Sequence record: OL964749.1
From: Escherichia phage T7
Length of the DNA stretch: 37,063 bases
Direction: 5' to 3' (one strand)
Shown here: piece after piece, positions 151 through 37,063 of the stretch
How the letters are laid out: every line of letters starts with the position of its first letter
Position numbering within the stretch: the stretch's first letter is position 1
Notes under the pieces: generated by a model
What the model saw: the letters and a program-made list of their open reading frames with translations, nothing else
What the model was told of the DNA's origin: nothing
Databases searched by the model: none
Position numbers and translations under genes: made by a program

Positions 151-345
151 ACCTGTTACAGTCTCCTAAAGTATCCTCCTAAAGTATCCTCCTAAAGTCA
201 CCTCCTAACGTCCATCCTAAAGCCAACACCTAAAGACCCATCAAGTCAACGCCTATCTTAAAGTTTAAACATAAAGACCAGACCTAAAGACCAGACCTAA
301 AGACACTACATAAAGACCAGACCTAAAGACGCCTTGTTGTTAGCC
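151..345. repeat. Left-end array of short CCTAAAG-containing repeats (concatemer junction region)
   Basis: Repeated 12-13 bp units such as CCTAAAGTATCCT (165-177 and 178-190), CCTAAAGTCACCT, CCTAAAGACCAGA, as in the T7 left end. Confidence 0.8.
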
Positions 346-853: not shown

Positions 854-1549
854 ATGGCTATGTCTAACATGACTTACAACAACGTTTTCGACCACGCTTA
901 CGAAATGCTGAAAGAAAACATCCGTTATGATGACATCCGTGACACTGATGACCTGCACGATGCTATTCACATGGCTGCCGATAATGCAGTTCCGCACTAC
1001 TACGCTGACATCTTTAGCGTAATGGCAAGTGAGGGCATTGACCTTGAGTTCGAAGACTCTGATCTGATGCCTGACACCAAGGACGTAATCCGCATCCTGC
1101 AAGCGCGTATCTATGAGCAATTAACGATTGACCTCTGGGAAGACGCAGAAGACTTGCTCAATGAATACTTGGAGGAAGTCGAGGAAGTCGCACGACAGAA
1201 AGAAATTGACCGCGCTAAGGCCCGTAAAGAACGTCACGAGGGGCGCTTAGAGGCACGCAGATTCAAACGTCGCAACCGCAAGGCACGTAAAGCACACAAA
1301 GCTAAGCGCGAAAGAATGCTTGCTGCGTGGCGATGGGCTGAACGTCAAGAACGGCGTAACCATGAGGTAGCTGTAGATGTACTAGGAAGAACCAATAACG
1401 CTATGCTCCGGGTCAACATGTCCTCTGGGGACTTTAAGGCGCTTGAGGAACGAATCGCGCTGCACTGGCGTAATGCTGACCGGATGGCTATCGCTAATGG
1501 TCTTACGCTCAACATTGATAAGCAACTTGACGCAATGTTAATGGGCTGA
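854..1549 (+). CDS. In-frame fusion: Ocr (gene 0.3 anti-restriction DNA mimic, residues 1 to about 111) joined to the C-terminal roughly 120 aa of gp0.7 (host transcription shut-off domain); kinase domain absent
   Basis: 231-aa ORF; N-terminus [19 protein letters not shown]...[10 protein letters not shown] equals T7 Ocr, then a basic Arg/Lys-rich tail ending 71 bp before gene 1, as gene 0.7 does in T7. Confidence 0.85.
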
Positions 1550-6053: not shown

Positions 6054-6076
6054 TTTTACGACTCACTAAAGGAGGT
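6054..6076 (+). promoter_or_regulatory. T7 promoter phi1.5 with non-consensus -16/-15 (TTTTACGACTCACTAAAGGAGGT)
   Basis: Matches the class II promoter from -14 to +6; positions -16 and -15 are TT instead of AA, consistent with a deletion junction at the promoter edge. Confidence 0.7.
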
Positions 6077-7350: not shown

Positions 7351-8049
7351 ATGGCTAAGAAGATTTTCACCTCTGCGCTGGGTACCGCTGAACCTTACGC
7401 TTACATCGCCAAGCCGGACTACGGCAACGAAGAGCGTGGCTTTGGGAACCCTCGTGGTGTCTATAAAGTTGACCTGACTATTCCCAACAAAGACCCGCGC
7501 TGCCAGCGTATGGTCGATGAAATCGTGAAGTGTCACGAAGAGGCTTATGCTGCTGCCGTTGAGGAATACGAAGCTAATCCACCTGCTGTAGCTCGTGGTA
7601 AGAAACCGCTGAAACCGTATGAGGGTGACATGCCGTTCTTCGATAACGGTGACGGTACGACTACCTTTAAGTTCAAATGCTACGCGTCTTTCCAAGACAA
7701 GAAGACCAAAGAGACCAAGCACATCAATCTTGTTGTGGTTGACTCAAAAGGTAAGAAGATGGAAGACGTTCCGATTATCGGTGGTGGCTCTAAGCTGAAA
7801 GTTAAATATTCTCTGGTTCCATACAAGTGGAACACTGCTGTAGGTGCGAGCGTTAAGCTGCAACTGGAATCCGTGATGCTGGTCGAACTGGCTACCTTTG
7901 GTGGCGGTGAAGACGATTGGGCTGACGAAGTTGAAGAGAACGGCTATGTTGCCTCTGGTTCTGCCAAAGCGAGCAAACCACGCGACGAAGAAAGCTGGGA
8001 CGAAGACGACGAAGAGTCCGAGGAAGCAGACGAAGACGGAGACTTCTAA
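7351..8049 (+). CDS. Single-stranded DNA-binding protein gp2.5
   Basis: 232-aa ORF MAKKIFTSALGTAEPYAYIAKPDYGNEERGFGNPRGVYKVDLTIPN... with acidic C-terminal tail ending ...EADEDGDF. Confidence 0.95.
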   Translation: MAKKIFTSALGTAEPYAYIAKPDYGNEERGFGNPRGVYKVDLTIPNKDPRCQRMVDEIVKCHEEAYAAAVEEYEANPPAVARGKKPLKPYEGDMPFFDNGDGTTTFKFKCYASFQDKKTKETKHINLVVVDSKGKKMEDVPIIGGGSKLKVKYSLVPYKWNTAVGASVKLQLESVMLVELATFGGGEDDWADEVEENGYVASGSAKASKPRDEESWDEDDEESEEADEDGDF

Positions 8050-8469
8050 GTGGAACTGCGGGAGAAAATCCTTGAGCGAATCAAGGTGACTTCCTCTGGG
8101 TGTTGGGAGTGGCAGGGCGCTACGAACAATAAAGGGTACGGGCAGGTGTGGTGCAGCAATACCGGAAAGGTTGTCTACTGTCATCGCGTAATGTCTAATG
8201 CTCCGAAAGGTTCTACCGTCCTGCACTCCTGTGATAATCCATTATGTTGTAACCCTGAACACCTATCCATAGGAACTCCAAAAGAGAACTCCACTGACAT
8301 GGTAAATAAGGGTCGCTCACACAAGGGGTATAAACTTTCAGACGAAGACGTAATGGCAATCATGGAGTCCAGCGAGTCCAATGTATCCTTAGCTCGCACC
8401 TATGGTGTCTCCCAACAGACTATTTGTGATATACGCAAATGGAGGCGACATGGCAGGTTACGGCGCTAA
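8050..8469 (+). CDS. Gene 2.8 protein (139 aa), HNH-type endonuclease-like
   Basis: ORF starting at GTG directly after the 2.5 stop; contains CHRVMSNAPKGSTVLHSCDNPLCCNPEHL, an HNH-like Cys/His motif. Confidence 0.7.
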   Translation: MELREKILERIKVTSSGCWEWQGATNNKGYGQVWCSNTGKVVYCHRVMSNAPKGSTVLHSCDNPLCCNPEHLSIGTPKENSTDMVNKGRSHKGYKLSDEDVMAIMESSESNVSLARTYGVSQQTICDIRKWRRHGRLRR

Positions 8470-9378: not shown

Positions 9379-11239
<1,861 letters not shown>

Positions 11240-11242
<3 letters not shown>

Positions 11243-11262
11243 TACGACTCACTAAAGGCCAC
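11240..11262 (+). promoter_or_regulatory. T7 promoter phi4.3 with altered initially transcribed sequence (GGCCAC instead of GGAGAC)
   Basis: TAATACGACTCACTAAAGG then CCACACAG; consensus through +2, consistent with a deletion junction at +3. Confidence 0.75.
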
Positions 11263-11380
11263 ACAGTCACGCGCTCTGGCGATTCGCTCCAACGAACTGG
11301 CTGACAGTGCATCCACTAAAGTTACCGAGGCTGCCCGTGTGGCAAACCAAGCTCAACAGCTTTCCAAATTCTTTGAGTAA
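11259..11380 (+). pseudogene. Remnant of gene 4.3 lacking RBS, start codon and about 30 N-terminal codons
   Basis: In-frame segment ATQSRALAIRSNELADSASTKVTEAARVANQAQQLSKFFE without an initiator; about 100 bp missing relative to reference. Confidence 0.65.
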
Positions 11381-11399
11381 TCAAACAGGAGAAACCATT

Positions 11400-11669
11400 A
11401 TGTCTAACGTAGCTGAAACTATCCGTCTATCCGATACAGCTGACCAGTGGAACCGTCGAGTCCACATCAACGTTCGCAACGGTAAGGCGACTATGGTTTA
11501 CCGCTGGAAGGACTCTAAGTCCTCTAAGAATCACACTCAGCGTATGACGTTGACAGATGAGCAAGCACTGCGTCTGGTCAATGCGCTTACCAAAGCTGCC
11601 GTGACAGCAATTCATGAAGCTGGTCGCGTCAATGAAGCTATGGCTATCCTCGACAAGATTGATAACTAA
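11400..11669 (+). CDS. Gene 4.5 protein (89 aa)
   Basis: ORF MSNVAETIRLSDTADQWNRRVHINVRNGKATMVYRWKDSK... preceded by CAGGAGAA; the track start at 11307 is an upstream extension. Confidence 0.85.
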   Translation: MSNVAETIRLSDTADQWNRRVHINVRNGKATMVYRWKDSKSSKNHTQRMTLTDEQALRLVNALTKAAVTAIHEAGRVNEAMAILDKIDN

Positions 11670-12068: not shown

Positions 12069-14183
12069 ATGATCGTTTCTGACATCGAAGCTAACGCCCT
12101 CTTAGAGAGCGTCACTAAGTTCCACTGCGGGGTTATCTACGACTACTCCACCGCTGAGTACGTAAGCTACCGTCCGAGTGACTTCGGTGCGTATCTGGAT
12201 GCGCTGGAAGCCGAGGTTGCACGAGGCGGTCTTATTGTGTTCCACAACGGTCACAAGTATGACGTTCCTGCATTGACCAAACTGGCAAAGTTGCAATTGA
12301 ACCGAGAGTTCCACCTTCCTCGTGAGAACTGTATTGACACCCTTGTGTTGTCACGTTTGATTCATTCCAACCTCAAGGACACCGATATGGGTCTTCTGCG
12401 TTCCGGCAAGTTGCCCGGAAAACGCTTTGGGTCTCACGCTTTGGAGGCGTGGGGTTATCGCTTAGGCGAGATGAAGGGTGAATACAAAGACGACTTTAAG
12501 CGTATGCTTGAAGAGCAGGGTGAAGAATACGTTGACGGAATGGAGTGGTGGAACTTCAACGAAGAGATGATGGACTATAACGTTCAGGACGTTGTGGTAA
12601 CTAAAGCTCTCCTTGAGAAGCTACTCTCTGACAAACATTACTTCCCTCCTGAGATTGACTTTACGGACGTAGGATACACTACGTTCTGGTCAGAATCCCT
12701 TGAGGCCGTTGACATTGAACATCGTGCTGCATGGCTGCTCGCTAAACAAGAGCGCAACGGGTTCCCGTTTGACACAAAAGCAATCGAAGAGTTGTACGTA
12801 GAGTTAGCTGCTCGCCGCTCTGAGTTGCTCCGTAAATTGACCGAAACGTTCGGCTCGTGGTATCAGCCTAAAGGTGGCACTGAGATGTTCTGCCATCCGC
12901 GAACAGGTAAGCCACTACCTAAATACCCTCGCATTAAGACACCTAAAGTTGGTGGTATCTTTAAGAAGCCTAAGAACAAGGCACAGCGAGAAGGCCGTGA
13001 GCCTTGCGAACTTGATACCCGCGAGTACGTTGCTGGTGCTCCTTACACCCCAGTTGAACATGTTGTGTTTAACCCTTCGTCTCGTGACCACATTCAGAAG
13101 AAACTCCAAGAGGCTGGGTGGGTCCCGACCAAGTACACCGATAAGGGTGCTCCTGTGGTGGACGATGAGGTACTCGAAGGAGTACGTGTAGATGACCCTG
13201 AGAAGCAAGCCGCTATCGACCTCATTAAAGAGTACTTGATGATTCAGAAGCGAATCGGACAGTCTGCTGAGGGAGACAAAGCATGGCTTCGTTATGTTGC
13301 TGAGGATGGTAAGATTCATGGTTCTGTTAACCCTAATGGAGCAGTTACGGGTCGTGCGACCCATGCGTTCCCAAACCTTGCGCAAATTCCGGGTGTACGT
13401 TCTCCTTATGGAGAGCAGTGTCGCGCTGCTTTTGGCGCTGAGCACCATTTGGATGGGATAACTGGTAAGCCTTGGGTTCAGGCTGGCATCGACGCATCCG
13501 GTCTTGAGCTACGCTGCTTGGCTCACTTCATGGCTCGCTTTGATAACGGCGAGTACGCTCACGAGATTCTTAACGGCGACATCCACACTAAGAACCAGAT
13601 AGCTGCTGAACTACCTACCCGAGATAACGCTAAGACGTTCATCTATGGGTTCCTCTATGGTGCTGGTGATGAGAAGATTGGACAGATTGTTGGTGCTGGT
13701 AAAGAGCGCGGTAAGGAACTCAAGAAGAAATTCCTTGAGAACACCCCCGCGATTGCAGCACTCCGCGAGTCTATCCAACAGACACTTGTCGAGTCCTCTC
13801 AATGGGTAGCTGGTGAGCAACAAGTCAAGTGGAAACGCCGCTGGATTAAAGGTCTGGATGGTCGTAAGGTACACGTTCGTAGTCCTCACGCTGCCTTGAA
13901 TACCCTACTGCAATCTGCTGGTGCTCTCATCTGCAAACTGTGGATTATCAAGACCGAAGAGATGCTCGTAGAGAAAGGCTTGAAGCATGGCTGGGATGGG
14001 GACTTTGCGTACATGGCATGGGTACATGATGAAATCCAAGTAGGCTGCCGTACCGAAGAGATTGCTCAGGTGGTCATTGAGACCGCACAAGAAGCGATGC
14101 GCTGGGTTGGAGACCACTGGAACTTCCGGTGTCTTCTGGATACCGAAGGTAAGATGGGTCCTAATTGGGCGATTTGCCACTGA
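12069..14183 (+). CDS. DNA polymerase gp5 (family A, thioredoxin-binding, with 3'-5' exonuclease)
   Basis: 704-aa [39 protein letters not shown]... with exonuclease and polymerase motifs; matches T7 gp5. Confidence 0.98.
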
Positions 14184-14198
14184 TACAGGAGGCTACTC

Positions 14199-14402
14199 AT
14201 GAACGAAAGACACTTAACAGGTGCTGCTTCTGAAATGCTAGTAGCCTACAAATTTACCAAAGCTGGGTACACTGTCTATTACCCTATGCTGACTCAGAGT
14301 AAAGAGGACTTGGTTGTATGTAAGGATGGTAAATTTAGTAAGGTTCAGGTTAAAACATTGTGGTTGACGAAGATGTGCTTATTTTCACATGGGACGAAGT
14401 AA
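14199..14402 (+). CDS. Gene 5.3 (HNH endonuclease-like), frameshift-truncated to 67 aa against 118 aa in reference
   Basis: N-terminus MNERHLTGAASEMLVAYKFTKAGYTVYYPMLTQSKEDLVVCKDGKFSKVQVKT matches gp5.3, then a short out-of-frame tail; about 100 bp missing. Confidence 0.7.
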   Translation: MNERHLTGAASEMLVAYKFTKAGYTVYYPMLTQSKEDLVVCKDGKFSKVQVKTLWLTKMCLFSHGTK

Positions 14403-16479: not shown

Positions 16480-16746
16480 ATGTGTTTCTCACCGAAAATT
16501 AAAACTCCGAAGATGGATACCAATCAGATTCGAGCCGTTGAGCCAGCGCCTCTGACCCAAGAAGTGTCAAGCGTGGAGTTCGGTGGGTCTTCTGATGAGA
16601 CGGATACCGAGGGCACCGAAGTGTCTGGACGCAAAGGCCTCAAGGTCGAACGTGATGATTCCGTAGCGAAGTCTAAAGCCAGCGGCAATGGCTCCGCTCG
16701 TATGAAATCTTCCATCCGTAAGTCCGCATTTGGAGGTAAGAAGTGA
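16480..16746 (+). CDS. Gene 6.7 protein (88 aa, virion protein)
   Basis: ORF MCFSPKIKTPKMDTNQIRAVEPAPLTQEVSSVEFGG...; the track start at 16459 is an upstream extension. Confidence 0.8.
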   Translation: MCFSPKIKTPKMDTNQIRAVEPAPLTQEVSSVEFGGSSDETDTEGTEVSGRKGLKVERDDSVAKSKASGNGSARMKSSIRKSAFGGKK

Positions 16747-19184: not shown

Positions 19185-20108
19185 ATGGCTGAATCTAATG
19201 CAGACGTATATGCATCTTTTGGCGTGAACTCCGCTGTGATGTCTGGTGGTTCCGTTGAGGAACATGAGCAGAACATGCTGGCTCTTGATGTTGCTGCCCG
19301 TGATGGCGATGATGCAATCGAGTTAGCGTCAGACGAAGTGGAAACAGAACGTGACCTGTATGACAACTCTGACCCGTTCGGTCAAGAGGATGACGAAGGC
19401 CGCATTCAGGTTCGTATCGGTGATGGCTCTGAGCCGACCGATGTGGACACTGGAGAAGAAGGCGTTGAGGGCACCGAAGGTTCCGAAGAGTTTACCCCAC
19501 TGGGCGAGACTCCAGAAGAACTGGTAGCTGCCTCTGAGCAACTTGGTGAGCACGAAGAGGGCTTCCAAGAGATGATTAACATTGCTGCTGAGCGTGGCAT
19601 GAGTGTCGAGACCATTGAGGCTATCCAGCGTGAGTACGAGGAGAACGAAGAGTTGTCCGCCGAGTCCTACGCTAAGCTGGCTGAAATTGGCTACACGAAG
19701 GCTTTCATTGACTCGTATATCCGTGGTCAAGAAGCTCTGGTGGAGCAGTACGTAAACAGTGTCATTGAGTACGCTGGTGGTCGTGAACGTTTTGATGCAC
19801 TGTATAACCACCTTGAGACGCACAACCCTGAGGCTGCACAGTCGCTGGATAATGCGTTGACCAATCGTGACTTAGCGACCGTTAAGGCTATCATCAACTT
19901 GGCTGGTGAGTCTCGCGCTAAGGCGTTCGGTCGTAAGCCAACTCGTAGTGTGACTAATCGTGCTATTCCGGCTAAACCTCAGGCTACCAAGCGTGAAGGC
20001 TTTGCGGACCGTAGCGAGATGATTAAAGCTATGAGTGACCCTCGGTATCGCACAGATGCCAACTATCGTCGTCAAGTCGAACAGAAAGTAATCGATTCGA
20101 ACTTCTGA
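19185..20108 (+). CDS. Capsid assembly (scaffolding) protein gp9
   Basis: 307-aa acidic ORF MAESNADVYASFGVNSAVMSGGSVEEHEQNMLALD...; matches T7 gp9. Confidence 0.95.
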   Translation: MAESNADVYASFGVNSAVMSGGSVEEHEQNMLALDVAARDGDDAIELASDEVETERDLYDNSDPFGQEDDEGRIQVRIGDGSEPTDVDTGEEGVEGTEGSEEFTPLGETPEELVAASEQLGEHEEGFQEMINIAAERGMSVETIEAIQREYEENEELSAESYAKLAEIGYTKAFIDSYIRGQEALVEQYVNSVIEYAGGRERFDALYNHLETHNPEAAQSLDNALTNRDLATVKAIINLAGESRAKAFGRKPTRSVTNRAIPAKPQATKREGFADRSEMIKAMSDPRYRTDANYRRQVEQKVIDSNF

Positions 20109-20121
20109 TAGACTTCGAAAT

Positions 20122-20144
20122 TAATACGACTCACTATAGTGAGA
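20122..20144 (+). promoter_or_regulatory. T7 class III promoter phi10 carrying a G-to-T change at +2 (TATAGTGAGA instead of TATAGGGAGA)
   Basis: TAATACGACTCACTATAGTGAGACCACAACGGTTTCCCTCTAGAAATAATTTTGTTTAACTTTAAGAAGGAGATATACATATG; otherwise identical to the phi10 promoter and leader used in pET vectors. Confidence 0.9.
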
Positions 20145-20201
20145 CCACAACGGTTTCCCTCTAGAAATAATTTTGTTTAACTTTAAGAAGGAGATATACA
20201 T

Positions 20202-21239
20202 ATGGCTAGCATGACTGGTGGACAGCAAATGGGTACTAACCAAGGTAAAGGTGTAGTTGCTGCTGGAGATAAACTGGCGTTGTTCTTGAAGGTATTTGGC
20301 GGTGAAGTCCTGACTGCGTTCGCTCGTACCTCCGTGACCACTTCTCGCCACATGGTACGTTCCATCTCCAGCGGTAAATCCGCTCAGTTCCCTGTTCTGG
20401 GTCGCACTCAGGCAGCGTATCTGGCTCCGGGCGAGAACCTCGACGATAAACGTAAGGACATCAAACACACCGAGAAGGTAATCACCATTGACGGTCTCCT
20501 GACGGCTGACGTTCTGATTTATGATATTGAGGACGCGATGAACCACTACGACGTTCGCTCTGAGTATACCTCTCAGTTGGGTGAATCTCTGGCGATGGCT
20601 GCGGATGGTGCGGTTCTGGCTGAGATTGCCGGTCTGTGTAACGTGGAAAGCAAATATAATGAGAACATCGAGGGCTTAGGTACTGCTACCGTAATTGAGA
20701 CCACTCAGAACAAGGCCGCACTTACCGACCAAGTTGCGCTGGGTAAGGAGATTATTGCGGCTCTGACTAAGGCTCGTGCGGCTCTGACCAAGAACTATGT
20801 TCCGGCTGCTGACCGTGTGTTCTACTGTGACCCAGATAGCTACTCTGCGATTCTGGCAGCACTGATGCCGAACGCAGCAAACTACGCTGCTCTGATTGAC
20901 CCTGAGAAGGGTTCTATCCGCAACGTTATGGGCTTTGAGGTTGTAGAAGTTCCGCACCTCACCGCTGGTGGTGCTGGTACCGCTCGTGAGGGCACTACTG
21001 GTCAGAAGCACGTCTTCCCTGCCAATAAAGGTGAGGGTAATGTCAAGGTTGCTAAGGACAACGTTATCGGCCTGTTCATGCACCGCTCTGCGGTAGGTAC
21101 TGTTAAGCTGCGTGACTTGGCTCTGGAGCGCGCTCGCCGTGCTAACTTCCAAGCGGACCAGATTATCGCTAAGTACGCAATGGGCCACGGTGGTCTTCGC
21201 CCAGAAGCTGCTGGTGCAGTGGTTTTCAAAGTGGAGTAA
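20202..21239 (+). CDS. Major capsid protein gp10A
   Basis: 345-aa ORF MASMTGGQQMGTNQGKGVVAAGDKLALFLKVFGGEVLTAFARTSV...; identical to T7 gp10A including the T7-tag N-terminus. Confidence 0.98.
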   Translation: MASMTGGQQMGTNQGKGVVAAGDKLALFLKVFGGEVLTAFARTSVTTSRHMVRSISSGKSAQFPVLGRTQAAYLAPGENLDDKRKDIKHTEKVITIDGLLTADVLIYDIEDAMNHYDVRSEYTSQLGESLAMAADGAVLAEIAGLCNVESKYNENIEGLGTATVIETTQNKAALTDQVALGKEIIAALTKARAALTKNYVPAADRVFYCDPDSYSAILAALMPNAANYAALIDPEKGSIRNVMGFEVVEVPHLTAGGAGTAREGTTGQKHVFPANKGEGNVKVAKDNVIGLFMHRSAVGTVKLRDLALERARRANFQADQIIAKYAMGHGGLRPEAAGAVVFKVE

Positions 21240-36446: not shown

Positions 36447-36469
36447 TAATACGACTCACTATAGGGAGA
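36447..36469 (+). promoter_or_regulatory. T7 class III promoter phiOR (right-end, replication/packaging-associated)
   Basis: TAATACGACTCACTATAGGGAGA; +1 near 36464. Confidence 0.95.
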
Positions 36470-36623
36470 GGAGGGACGAAAGGTTACTATATAGATACTG
36501 AATGAATACTTATAGAGTGCATAAAGTATGCATAATGGTGTACCTAGAGTGACCTCTAAGAATGGTGATTATATTGTATTAGTATCACCTTAACTTAAGG
36601 ACCAACATAAAGGGAGGAGACTC

Positions 36624-36773
36624 ATGTTCCGCTTATTGTTGAACCTACTGCGGCATAGAGTCACCTACCGATTTCTTGTGGTACTTTGTGCTGCCCTTGG
36701 GTACGCATCTCTTACTGGAGACCTCAGTTCACTGGAGTCTGTCGTTTGCTCTATACTCACTTGTAGCGATTAG
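36624..36773 (+). CDS. Gene 19.5 protein (49 aa, hydrophobic)
   Basis: ORF MFRLLLNLLRHRVTYRFLVVLCAALGYASLTGDLSSLESVVCSILTCSD preceded by AAAGGGAGGAGA. Confidence 0.8.
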   Translation: MFRLLLNLLRHRVTYRFLVVLCAALGYASLTGDLSSLESVVCSILTCSD

Positions 36774-36912
36774 GGTCTTCCTGACCGACTGATGGCTCAT
36801 CTATACCTAAAGATAGGCCATCCTATCAGTGTCACCTAAAGAGGGTCTTAGAGAGGGCCTATGGAGTTCCTATAGGGTCCTTTAAAATATACCATAAAAA
36901 TCTGAGTGACTA

Positions 36913-37063
36913 TCTCACAGTGTACGGACCTAAAGTTCCCCCATAGGGGTACCTAAAGCCCAGCCAATCACCTAAAGTCAATGACCTTGAGGGTTCCCTA
37001 AGGGTTGGGGATGACCCTTGGGTTTGTCTTTGGGTGTTACCTTGAGTGTCTCTCTGTGTCCCT
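36913..37063. repeat. Right terminal direct repeat (TR)
   Basis: 36914-37063 is identical to 1-150; the preceding T at 36913 corresponds to the first TR base missing from the window start. Confidence 0.95.

Follow-up and report, generated by a model that had tools for sequence, protein, structure and literature searches.

A 100-bp deletion of very probably engineered origin removes a conserved hairpin near the right terminal repeat of a mutant T7 genome

The right end of the mutant T7 genome OL964749.1 lacks exactly 100 bp between gene 19.5 and the right terminal repeat, and the lost segment holds a 51-nt two-tier hairpin at T7 39568-39618 (AGGGATTCAGCGGTATGATTGCATCACACCACTTCATCCCTATAGAGTCAA). 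The whole sequence of 37,063 nucleotides, a complete T7-type genome, was analysed and is referred to here as the window. The deletion is a designed Cas9/homology-directed edit from a published genome-reduction study, not a natural or spontaneous variant. That the gap was engineered and that it took a conserved hairpin with it we regard as very probable. The hairpin is dispensable for plaque formation in the laboratory. As a discovery the deletion is already known, since it is an engineered feature of a published and deposited mutant, and as a sequence feature it is ordinary; its modest value is that of a ready-made experiment on a conserved hairpin by the concatemer junction.

The gap was defined by alignment of window 36560-37063 with the T7 reference NC_001604 and by whole-genome BLAST. 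Both place it at T7 39565-39664, and the alignment to the reference right end is interrupted by one clean gap only. The spacer from the gene 19.5 stop codon to the repeat measures 139 bp in the window (36774-36912) and 239 bp in T7 (39539-39777), so the two are not of equal length and the original prediction of about 100 missing bp holds. The junction is also where it had been proposed, at window 36799|36800 (...GATGGCTCA|TCTATACCTAAAG..., also written ...GATGGCTCA|TCTATACC...). Both 50-bp flanks match T7 perfectly. Since the junction has 0 bp microhomology and cannot slide either way, alignment ambiguity or chance is excluded. Besides the hairpin, the lost DNA comprises a Cas9 protospacer with its PAM (CCCTATAGAGTCAAGTCCTA, PAM AGG, T7 39605-39627) and three of the five CCTAAAG-like heptamer repeats of the spacer.

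Promoter phiOR and gene 19.5 are both intact. The promoter lies at 36447-36469 on the + strand (TAATACGACTCACTATAGGGAGA, +1 at 36464; 39229 in NC_001604, an offset of 2765), and transcripts that start from it cover gene 19.5, what is left of the spacer, and the repeat. Gene 19.5 (36624-36773, + strand, 49 aa; T7 ORF 39389-39538, T7p60 in the annotation of the sibling clones) has the same translation as T7 gp19.5, and its stop codon is 26 bp before the deletion. Promoter and terminator scans of the window match those of T7 except for the coordinate shift, with none lost or gained through the 100-bp deletion. To the right of the junction the genome retains a poorly conserved spacer (36800-36878) with two CCTAAAG repeats (36806-36812 and 36835-36841) and an imperfect palindrome, CCTATGGAGTTCCTATAGG (36858-36876), which is not kept up in relatives. 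A 34-bp conserved block, CCTTTAAAATATACCATAAAAATCTGAGTGACTA (36879-36912), abuts the repeat.

The source of the deletion was traced by megablast against 50,697 phage records. The right end matched OL964748.1 (T7_1t1) at 100% in a single piece and OL964750.1 (T7_1t3) at 99.9%. All other T7 records aligned there in two pieces at 98.8% and thus do not carry the deletion. Relatives ranked in the same way when the first 20 kb of the window were used, and by whole-genome BLAST the window and T7_1t1 are only two deletions apart. The titles of OL964748 and OL964750 name them as 'Mutant Escherichia phage T7 clone' T7_1t1 and T7_1t3, and the window is their sibling. The clone names, together with those of the MZ3752xx series (T7_30S, T7_270S, T7_300L.2), fit the CiPGr study (PMC9825161). 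The same junction is present in the two sibling genomes, which were deposited independently. That the gap is an assembly or sequencing artefact of a structured, repeat-rich genome end is scarcely credible: such ends with hairpins and repeats are error-prone and the left end of the record is one base short, but the same clean junction with perfect flanks occurs in three separately deposited clone genomes, and the size and position of the gap obey the cassette design rule.

This rule is given in the CiPGr paper (Yuan, Shi, Jiang & Ma, Nucleic Acids Res 2022; PMC9825161), according to which T7 went through as many as 300 passages in host cells equipped with SpCas9 and plasmid libraries. Each cassette pairs a 20-nt spacer with a repair template of 100 bp whose arms are 50 bp long; cassette-100 removes 100 bp and cassette-gene an entire gene, and the two libraries are described as separate (PMC9825161). 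If the arm length of this design is applied to the window, the left homology arm would be 36750-36799 (T7 39515-39564) and the right arm 36800-36849 (T7 39665-39714), both identical to T7. We infer the exact cassette and the arms from the design.

The same genome allows designed and other deletions to be compared, and we mapped every window deletion against T7 and measured the microhomology at each junction. Those of exactly 100 bp at T7 8163-8262, 14172-14271, 16642-16741 and 39565-39664 have 0 bp. A further deletion of exactly 100 bp at 13340-13439 has 3 bp; written as 13341-13440, with the ambiguity resolved, it has a centred target on the - strand. Two deletions remove exact whole genes with 0 bp microhomology, 7608-7763 (gene 1.4) and 19848-20216 (gene 7.7), the latter sparing the last 24 bp before gene 8, where its start region lies. 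Deletions of irregular length (541-644, 1244-2723 and 11177-11453) have 9-13 bp. Each of the five 100-bp deletions has a 20-nt protospacer followed by NGG at exactly positions 41-60 (40+20+40), on the + strand in four and on the - strand in one. From the GG/CC dinucleotide frequencies (0.061/0.045) a centred protospacer is expected by chance at ca. 0.106 per deletion and ca. 5e-5 overall. At the right end this Cas9 target is CCCTATAGAGTCAAGTCCTA|AGG (T7 39605-39624, with the PAM extending to 39627). The exact size, the centred NGG protospacer, the lack of microhomology and the clone identity together identify a designed, Cas9-selected and template-copied edit.

A spontaneous deletion, formed by replication slippage or CRISPR escape between short direct repeats and not copied from a template, is highly improbable. 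T7 does make such deletions, as the three in the window genome and those at the right end of sibling genomes (39420-39608 and 39363-39718) illustrate, and a target outside any annotated gene is unexpected for a designed cassette. However, spontaneous deletions have irregular sizes and 6-13 bp of microhomology, in contrast to exactly 100 bp and 0 bp at 39565-39664. The direct-repeat signature, found with 9-13 bp at the three spontaneous deletions of this genome, is absent here, and the NGG protospacer is centred in the missing segment as it is in the other four 100-bp deletions.

Two observations count against a cassette-100 origin. The protospacer at 39605-39624 is intergenic, 67 bp downstream of the gene 19.5 stop (39538) and outside all 60 annotated T7 genes. 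This is at odds with the published description of the cassettes as gene-directed, with likely regulatory elements avoided (PMC9825161). Furthermore, the two whole-gene deletions of the window are unexpected from a pure cassette-100 library; 100-bp and whole-gene edits occur together in one genome, though the paper presents the libraries as separate (PMC9825161). It also names 'gp19.5' among undesigned large deletions (PMC9825161), a description that fits the 39420-39608 deletion of other clones and not 39565-39664. In the accessible part of the CiPGr main text neither the deletion site nor the removed conserved element is mentioned (PMC9825161). Point mutations in other clones were considered as possible marks of Cas9 escape at 39605-39627; their positions fall in the hairpin instead, and for this reason they neither confirm nor refute the guide.

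According to the CiPGr design, a host plasmid would carry a guide RNA against T7 39605-39624 (CCCTATAGAGTCAAGTCCTA, PAM AGG) and, on the same plasmid, a repair template of 100 bp that joins the two 50-bp stretches flanking a 100-bp segment with the target in its middle. Cas9 would destroy phage DNA that is still unedited. Phages that copy the template by homologous recombination would lose the target and then take over in serial passage. With the edit, the spacer after gene 19.5 has shrunk to 139 bp from its original 239, the hairpin and three of the five CCTAAAG-like repeats are gone, and gene 19.5, the conserved 34-bp block and the repeat itself are still in place.

Further designed-edit junctions occur in the window at 6056|6057, 6455|6456, 11255|11256, 11987|11988, 14357|14358 and 17451|17452. 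These edits comprise the exact removal of gene 1.4, four 100-bp deletions (at the gene 1.7 start, the phi4.3 promoter/gene 4.3, gene 4.7 and gene 5.3) and the removal of gene 7.7. Among the irregular deletions, the 1,480-bp deletion T7 1244-2723 (13-bp microhomology) removes genes 0.4-0.6 and creates an in-frame fusion at window 1172|1173. The resulting reading frame, window 854-1549 on the + strand, joins residues 1-110 of Ocr (gp0.3) to the C-terminal ca. 120 residues of the gp0.7 kinase/shut-off protein; its Ocr part carries one substitution (EDSGLM to EDSDLM). At window 573|574 a 104-bp deletion (T7 541-644) between GTCAACCGG repeats spans position 626, the E. coli early promoter A2 in NC_001604. 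Promoter A2 is consequently lost, while A1 (498) and A3 (750) remain.

The conservation of the right-end spacer was examined by aligning it with seven natural relatives: phiA1122, 64795_ec1, Salmonella 3A_8767, NC-A, Sal_R1S, Aeromonas PZL-Ah1 and Klebsiella phi1_146030. Identity to T7 was 79% for the 3' end of gene 19.5 (T7 39480-39538) and 74% from the stop codon to the start of the deletion (39539-39564). It rose to 98.6% in the hairpin (39568-39618), reaching 96% even in two distant phages, as compared to 74-85% for its flanks. The remaining deleted DNA (39619-39664) was 85% identical and the retained spacer (39665-39743) 78%. The 34 bp adjoining the repeat (39744-39777) reached 95% across the relatives and 100% in close ones. 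Of the non-coding DNA that separates gene 19.5 from the repeat, the best-conserved element therefore lies in the deleted part. The original prediction had placed the gap beside sequences implicated in concatemer processing. The region is indeed part of the T7 concatemer-junction neighbourhood; the deleted DNA is no neutral neighbour of such sequences, since it holds a conserved, covarying hairpin itself.

The 60-bp conserved block is at least 99% identical in 102 phage records, and the hairpin can be recognised in the corresponding position of T3 (Teetrevirus) and K11 (Przondovirus), i.e. in three genera in all. It lies downstream of phiOR in unique DNA, 160-210 bp left of the repeat in T7, 156-207 bp in T3 and at a similar distance in K11. 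A pattern scan of IMG/VR returned 70 contigs with 12 variants in four classes. All variants fold alike: an outer stem of 6 bp is followed inwards by a middle stem of 2 bp, then by 3 bp, a mismatch or bulge, and 4-5 bp with a loop of 3-4 nt. A covariance model also finds relatives in which the C-terminal half of the terminase is only ca. 66-74% identical, and in these even the outer stem has changed in a compensatory manner, from AGGGAT/ATCCCT to GGTCAT/ATGACC.

In the model-fitted alignment of 14 distinct sequences 92.9% of the cells were paired; when the partners were slid as a control, the figure was 27-43%. Of the 15 pairs, 7 show compensatory change at both positions among these 14 sequences, which represent ca. 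5-6 independent lineages. The observed covariation score was reached by no shuffle; it was counted on an alignment that was fitted to the model and hence leans towards it, and the number of lineages is small. A plain MAFFT alignment of T7-type and K11-type hairpins was not structural and was replaced by the covariance-model alignment. Two T7-like contigs had no match to the hairpin model and carried a two-tier hairpin with a 10-bp outer stem (CCTTAAGG...) ca. 490 bp after gene 19. These hairpins, at contig positions 2962-3017 and 2951-3006, are at the same distance after gene 19. Because contigs lacking the sequence match still carry a two-tier hairpin, the structure appears to be older than its sequence.

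A coding explanation for the conserved block was rejected: the overlapping T7 open reading frames have only 22-36 aa, the ATG is not kept in T3 and K11, and the substitutions are pairwise-compensatory. Rfam holds no family for the hairpin and returned only a sub-threshold chance match to a snoRNA. A second or relocated copy that could explain tolerance of the loss was found neither in the window nor elsewhere in T7. In laboratory-evolved T7 the hairpin carries point substitutions, three in T7_40L (39572, 39590 and 39592) and one in T7_70L (39596), clustering at T7 39572-39596. A39585G was seen twice in identical form, once in the CiPGr clone T7_5t3 and once in K115 (AY264776), an evolved isolate that is unrelated. 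Relaxed or reversed selection in laboratory passage, chance in a heavily mutated line, and donor-oligo errors are possible causes of these substitutions.

The earlier proposal that the phage tolerates the loss is supported, since the window genome matches plaque-purified clones for which good growth had been the selection criterion in the CiPGr study (PMC9825161). The T7_1t clones are apparently its 'T7_100_t' isolates. Before these were purified as plaques they had competed through eight transfers on plain hosts, and the best of them grew only 0.9 doublings per hour below wild type despite a genome reduction of ca. 7% (PMC9825161). Other clones have lost the hairpin through different deletions. 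The ca. 39420-39608 deletion, with 9-bp microhomology (ATAGAGTCA), occurs in T7_30S and many later clones. In T7_300L.2 a deletion of ca. 39363-39718 leaves only 59 bp before the repeat. Block CCTTTAAAATATACCATAAAAATCTGAGTGACTA, which is conserved in T3 and K11, is present in every deletion clone examined, including T7_300L.2. Because sibling clones carry larger deletions in the region, dispensability of the hairpin was already implicit in public data. The suggestion that the 100-bp gap helps to define what is dispensable thus stands as far as tolerance goes, whereas the interval itself is better bounded by these larger deletions. An independent insertion screen found most loci at the T7 ends non-essential, with the exception of positions 142 and 162 (PMC11482910).

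Several other changes surround the concatemer junction in this genome. The right terminal repeat (36913-37063) has 151 bp instead of 160. Missing from it are CCTTCGGT, which forms the middle of the perfect palindrome GTCAACC-TTC-GGTTGAC, and a single G from the G-run CCCCCATAGGGGG. The left repeat (1-150) has the same two small deletions, and the record starts one base late there, the first T of TCTCACAG being absent. Thus, both repeats are ca. 151 bp, and the direct repeat pair at the genome ends is 1-150/36914-37063. The changes map to junctions 68|69 and 36981|36982 and to the G-run at 33-36. The other CiPGr lineage (T7_270S, T7_300L.2 and T7_5t3) lacks 18 bp of the repeat (GGGTTGGGGATGACCCTT), by which a terminator-like stem-loop is lost, and carries substitutions in addition. 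The loss of CCTTCGGT in one lineage and of these 18 bp in the other means that the two independently lost different repeat hairpins.

Next to the left repeat, the class II pause motif of the concatemer junction (window 151-157, + strand) has changed from ATCTGTT to ACCTGTT by alignment to T7 (T162C, window 152). ATCTGTT we take to be the pause signal for T7 RNA polymerase at the concatemer junction. The T162C change also occurs in the other lineage (T7_30S and T7_100L) and not in reference T7; it may have arisen through selection, as a stock polymorphism or by Cas9 escape. Position 162 is one of only two essential end spots in the insertion screen (PMC11482910). Further inward, at window ca. 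170-235, the CCTAAAG-type array is rearranged, with one TATCCTCCTAAAG unit gained and one CCTACACCTAAAG unit lost at a net length change of 0. Around 366-420 the genome has gained two tandem copies, both partial, of the upstream half of phiOL (TCATTGTCTTTATTAATA[C/T]AA); T7_1t3 has three.

This unusual cluster (smaller terminal repeat, T162C, and repeat-array and phiOL duplications) would be expected if the hairpin were packaging DNA of essential grade and the clone survived through compensating changes at the junction. We consider this very unlikely. In T7_30S, an early clone without the whole hairpin (39420-39608), the terminal repeat is still that of wild type, so that the junction did not have to compensate at once. 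Conversely, T7_5t3 has kept the hairpin region and nevertheless shows the repeat changes of its lineage, and T162C is found in both lineages irrespective of the 39565-39664 deletion. From these three distributions it follows that the junction changes do not track hairpin loss.

Viable plaque-purified clones lacking the hairpin through three different deletions argue against a requirement in cis for packaging or phage growth; a quantitative defect is possible. We tentatively favour, with slightly less than even confidence, an accessory role in cis, as a signal by which concatemers are processed or packaging is initiated. The main alternative to a packaging or concatemer-processing signal is that the hairpin acts as RNA in phiOR or read-through late transcripts, affecting stability, processing or polymerase pausing, with no direct packaging role. 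The element lies downstream of phiOR on the transcribed strand, its predicted RNA fold is good (-15 to -19 kcal/mol), and the laboratory substitution A39585G, which converts an A-T pair to a G-T wobble, occurred in two lines. On the other hand, it has neither an Rfam family nor a U-tract as in a terminator. It is a near-palindrome, so that both DNA strands fold. The pair counts include almost no G-U cells and hence reveal no strand asymmetry, and the conserved, single-stranded-looking tail TA-N-AGTCAA and the fixed distance to the repeat would suit a protein or DNA site better. An RNA role is therefore rather improbable.

For the signal role, the position of the hairpin is of interest. The right repeat starts at 39778, and the centre of the hairpin loop (39588) lies 190 bp to the left of this base. 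Chung, Nardone and Hinkle (J Mol Biol, 1990) are said to have described a hairpin end on T7 concatemers ca. 190 bp from a mature-end site. Work from the Fujisawa laboratory reportedly located pacB, a recognition site of the T3 terminase, in unique DNA left of the repeat. The hairpin at T7 39568-39618 is a candidate for the published hairpin end or pacB. That it is the cis signal which starts concatemer processing or packaging in the T7 group, even though T7 grows without it, is conceivable but on balance unlikely. If so, hairpin-primed duplication of the terminal repeat, or recognition of pacB, would be an accessory and not an obligatory route, and the true minimal right-end signal would consist of the 59 bp adjoining the repeat and the repeat itself.

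In the published models gp18 recognises PacB and gp19 cuts PacC, and the packaging signal is required (PMC9860248). Packaging plasmids need phiOR and the junction (bioRxiv 10.1101/2024.04.20.590424). The production of terminally redundant genomes, the origin of the second repeat copy and the recognition of concatemers are still poorly understood (PMC13595956; PMC3350473). Public mutants offer a hairpin that is near-invariant in nature, has been maintained by compensatory change from T7 to T3 and K11, and can be removed without killing the phage. The need for right-side DNA at the junction can be narrowed to ca. 59 bp plus the repeat, and the role of the hairpin is directly testable with existing strains. 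This is relevant for the design of a minimal T7 chassis and for T7 packaging plasmids.

Of the known systems, the cassette-100 edits of CiPGr are the closest to the window deletion, with an identical junction, a size of exactly 100 bp, 0 bp microhomology, a centred SpCas9 target and the same companion deletions. They differ in that the target here is intergenic and the cassettes are gene-directed in the paper (PMC9825161). Spontaneous T7 deletions, i.e. the classical deletion mutants and CRISPR-escape deletions such as 39420-39608 in T7_30S, likewise remove non-essential end-proximal DNA from a viable phage, and the T7_30S type removes the hairpin too. They have arbitrary lengths and direct repeats of 6-13 bp, in contrast to the exact 100 bp and lack of repeats in the window.

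The lost element resembles pacB or the 'hairpin end' in that it is found downstream of phiOR, within the unique DNA to the left of the right repeat, in its ability to form a hairpin, and in being common to T3 and T7 with differences that could give specificity. It differs from them in that the published signal is required, whereas the lost element is absent from a viable phage. Lambda cosB/cosQ share no sequence or protein homology with the T7 element, and lambda has cohesive ends where T7 has direct terminal repeats. By analogy only, they are accessory sites in cis, adjacent to where terminase cuts, that enhance its action and do not define it, which is the role that the hairpin may have in T7.
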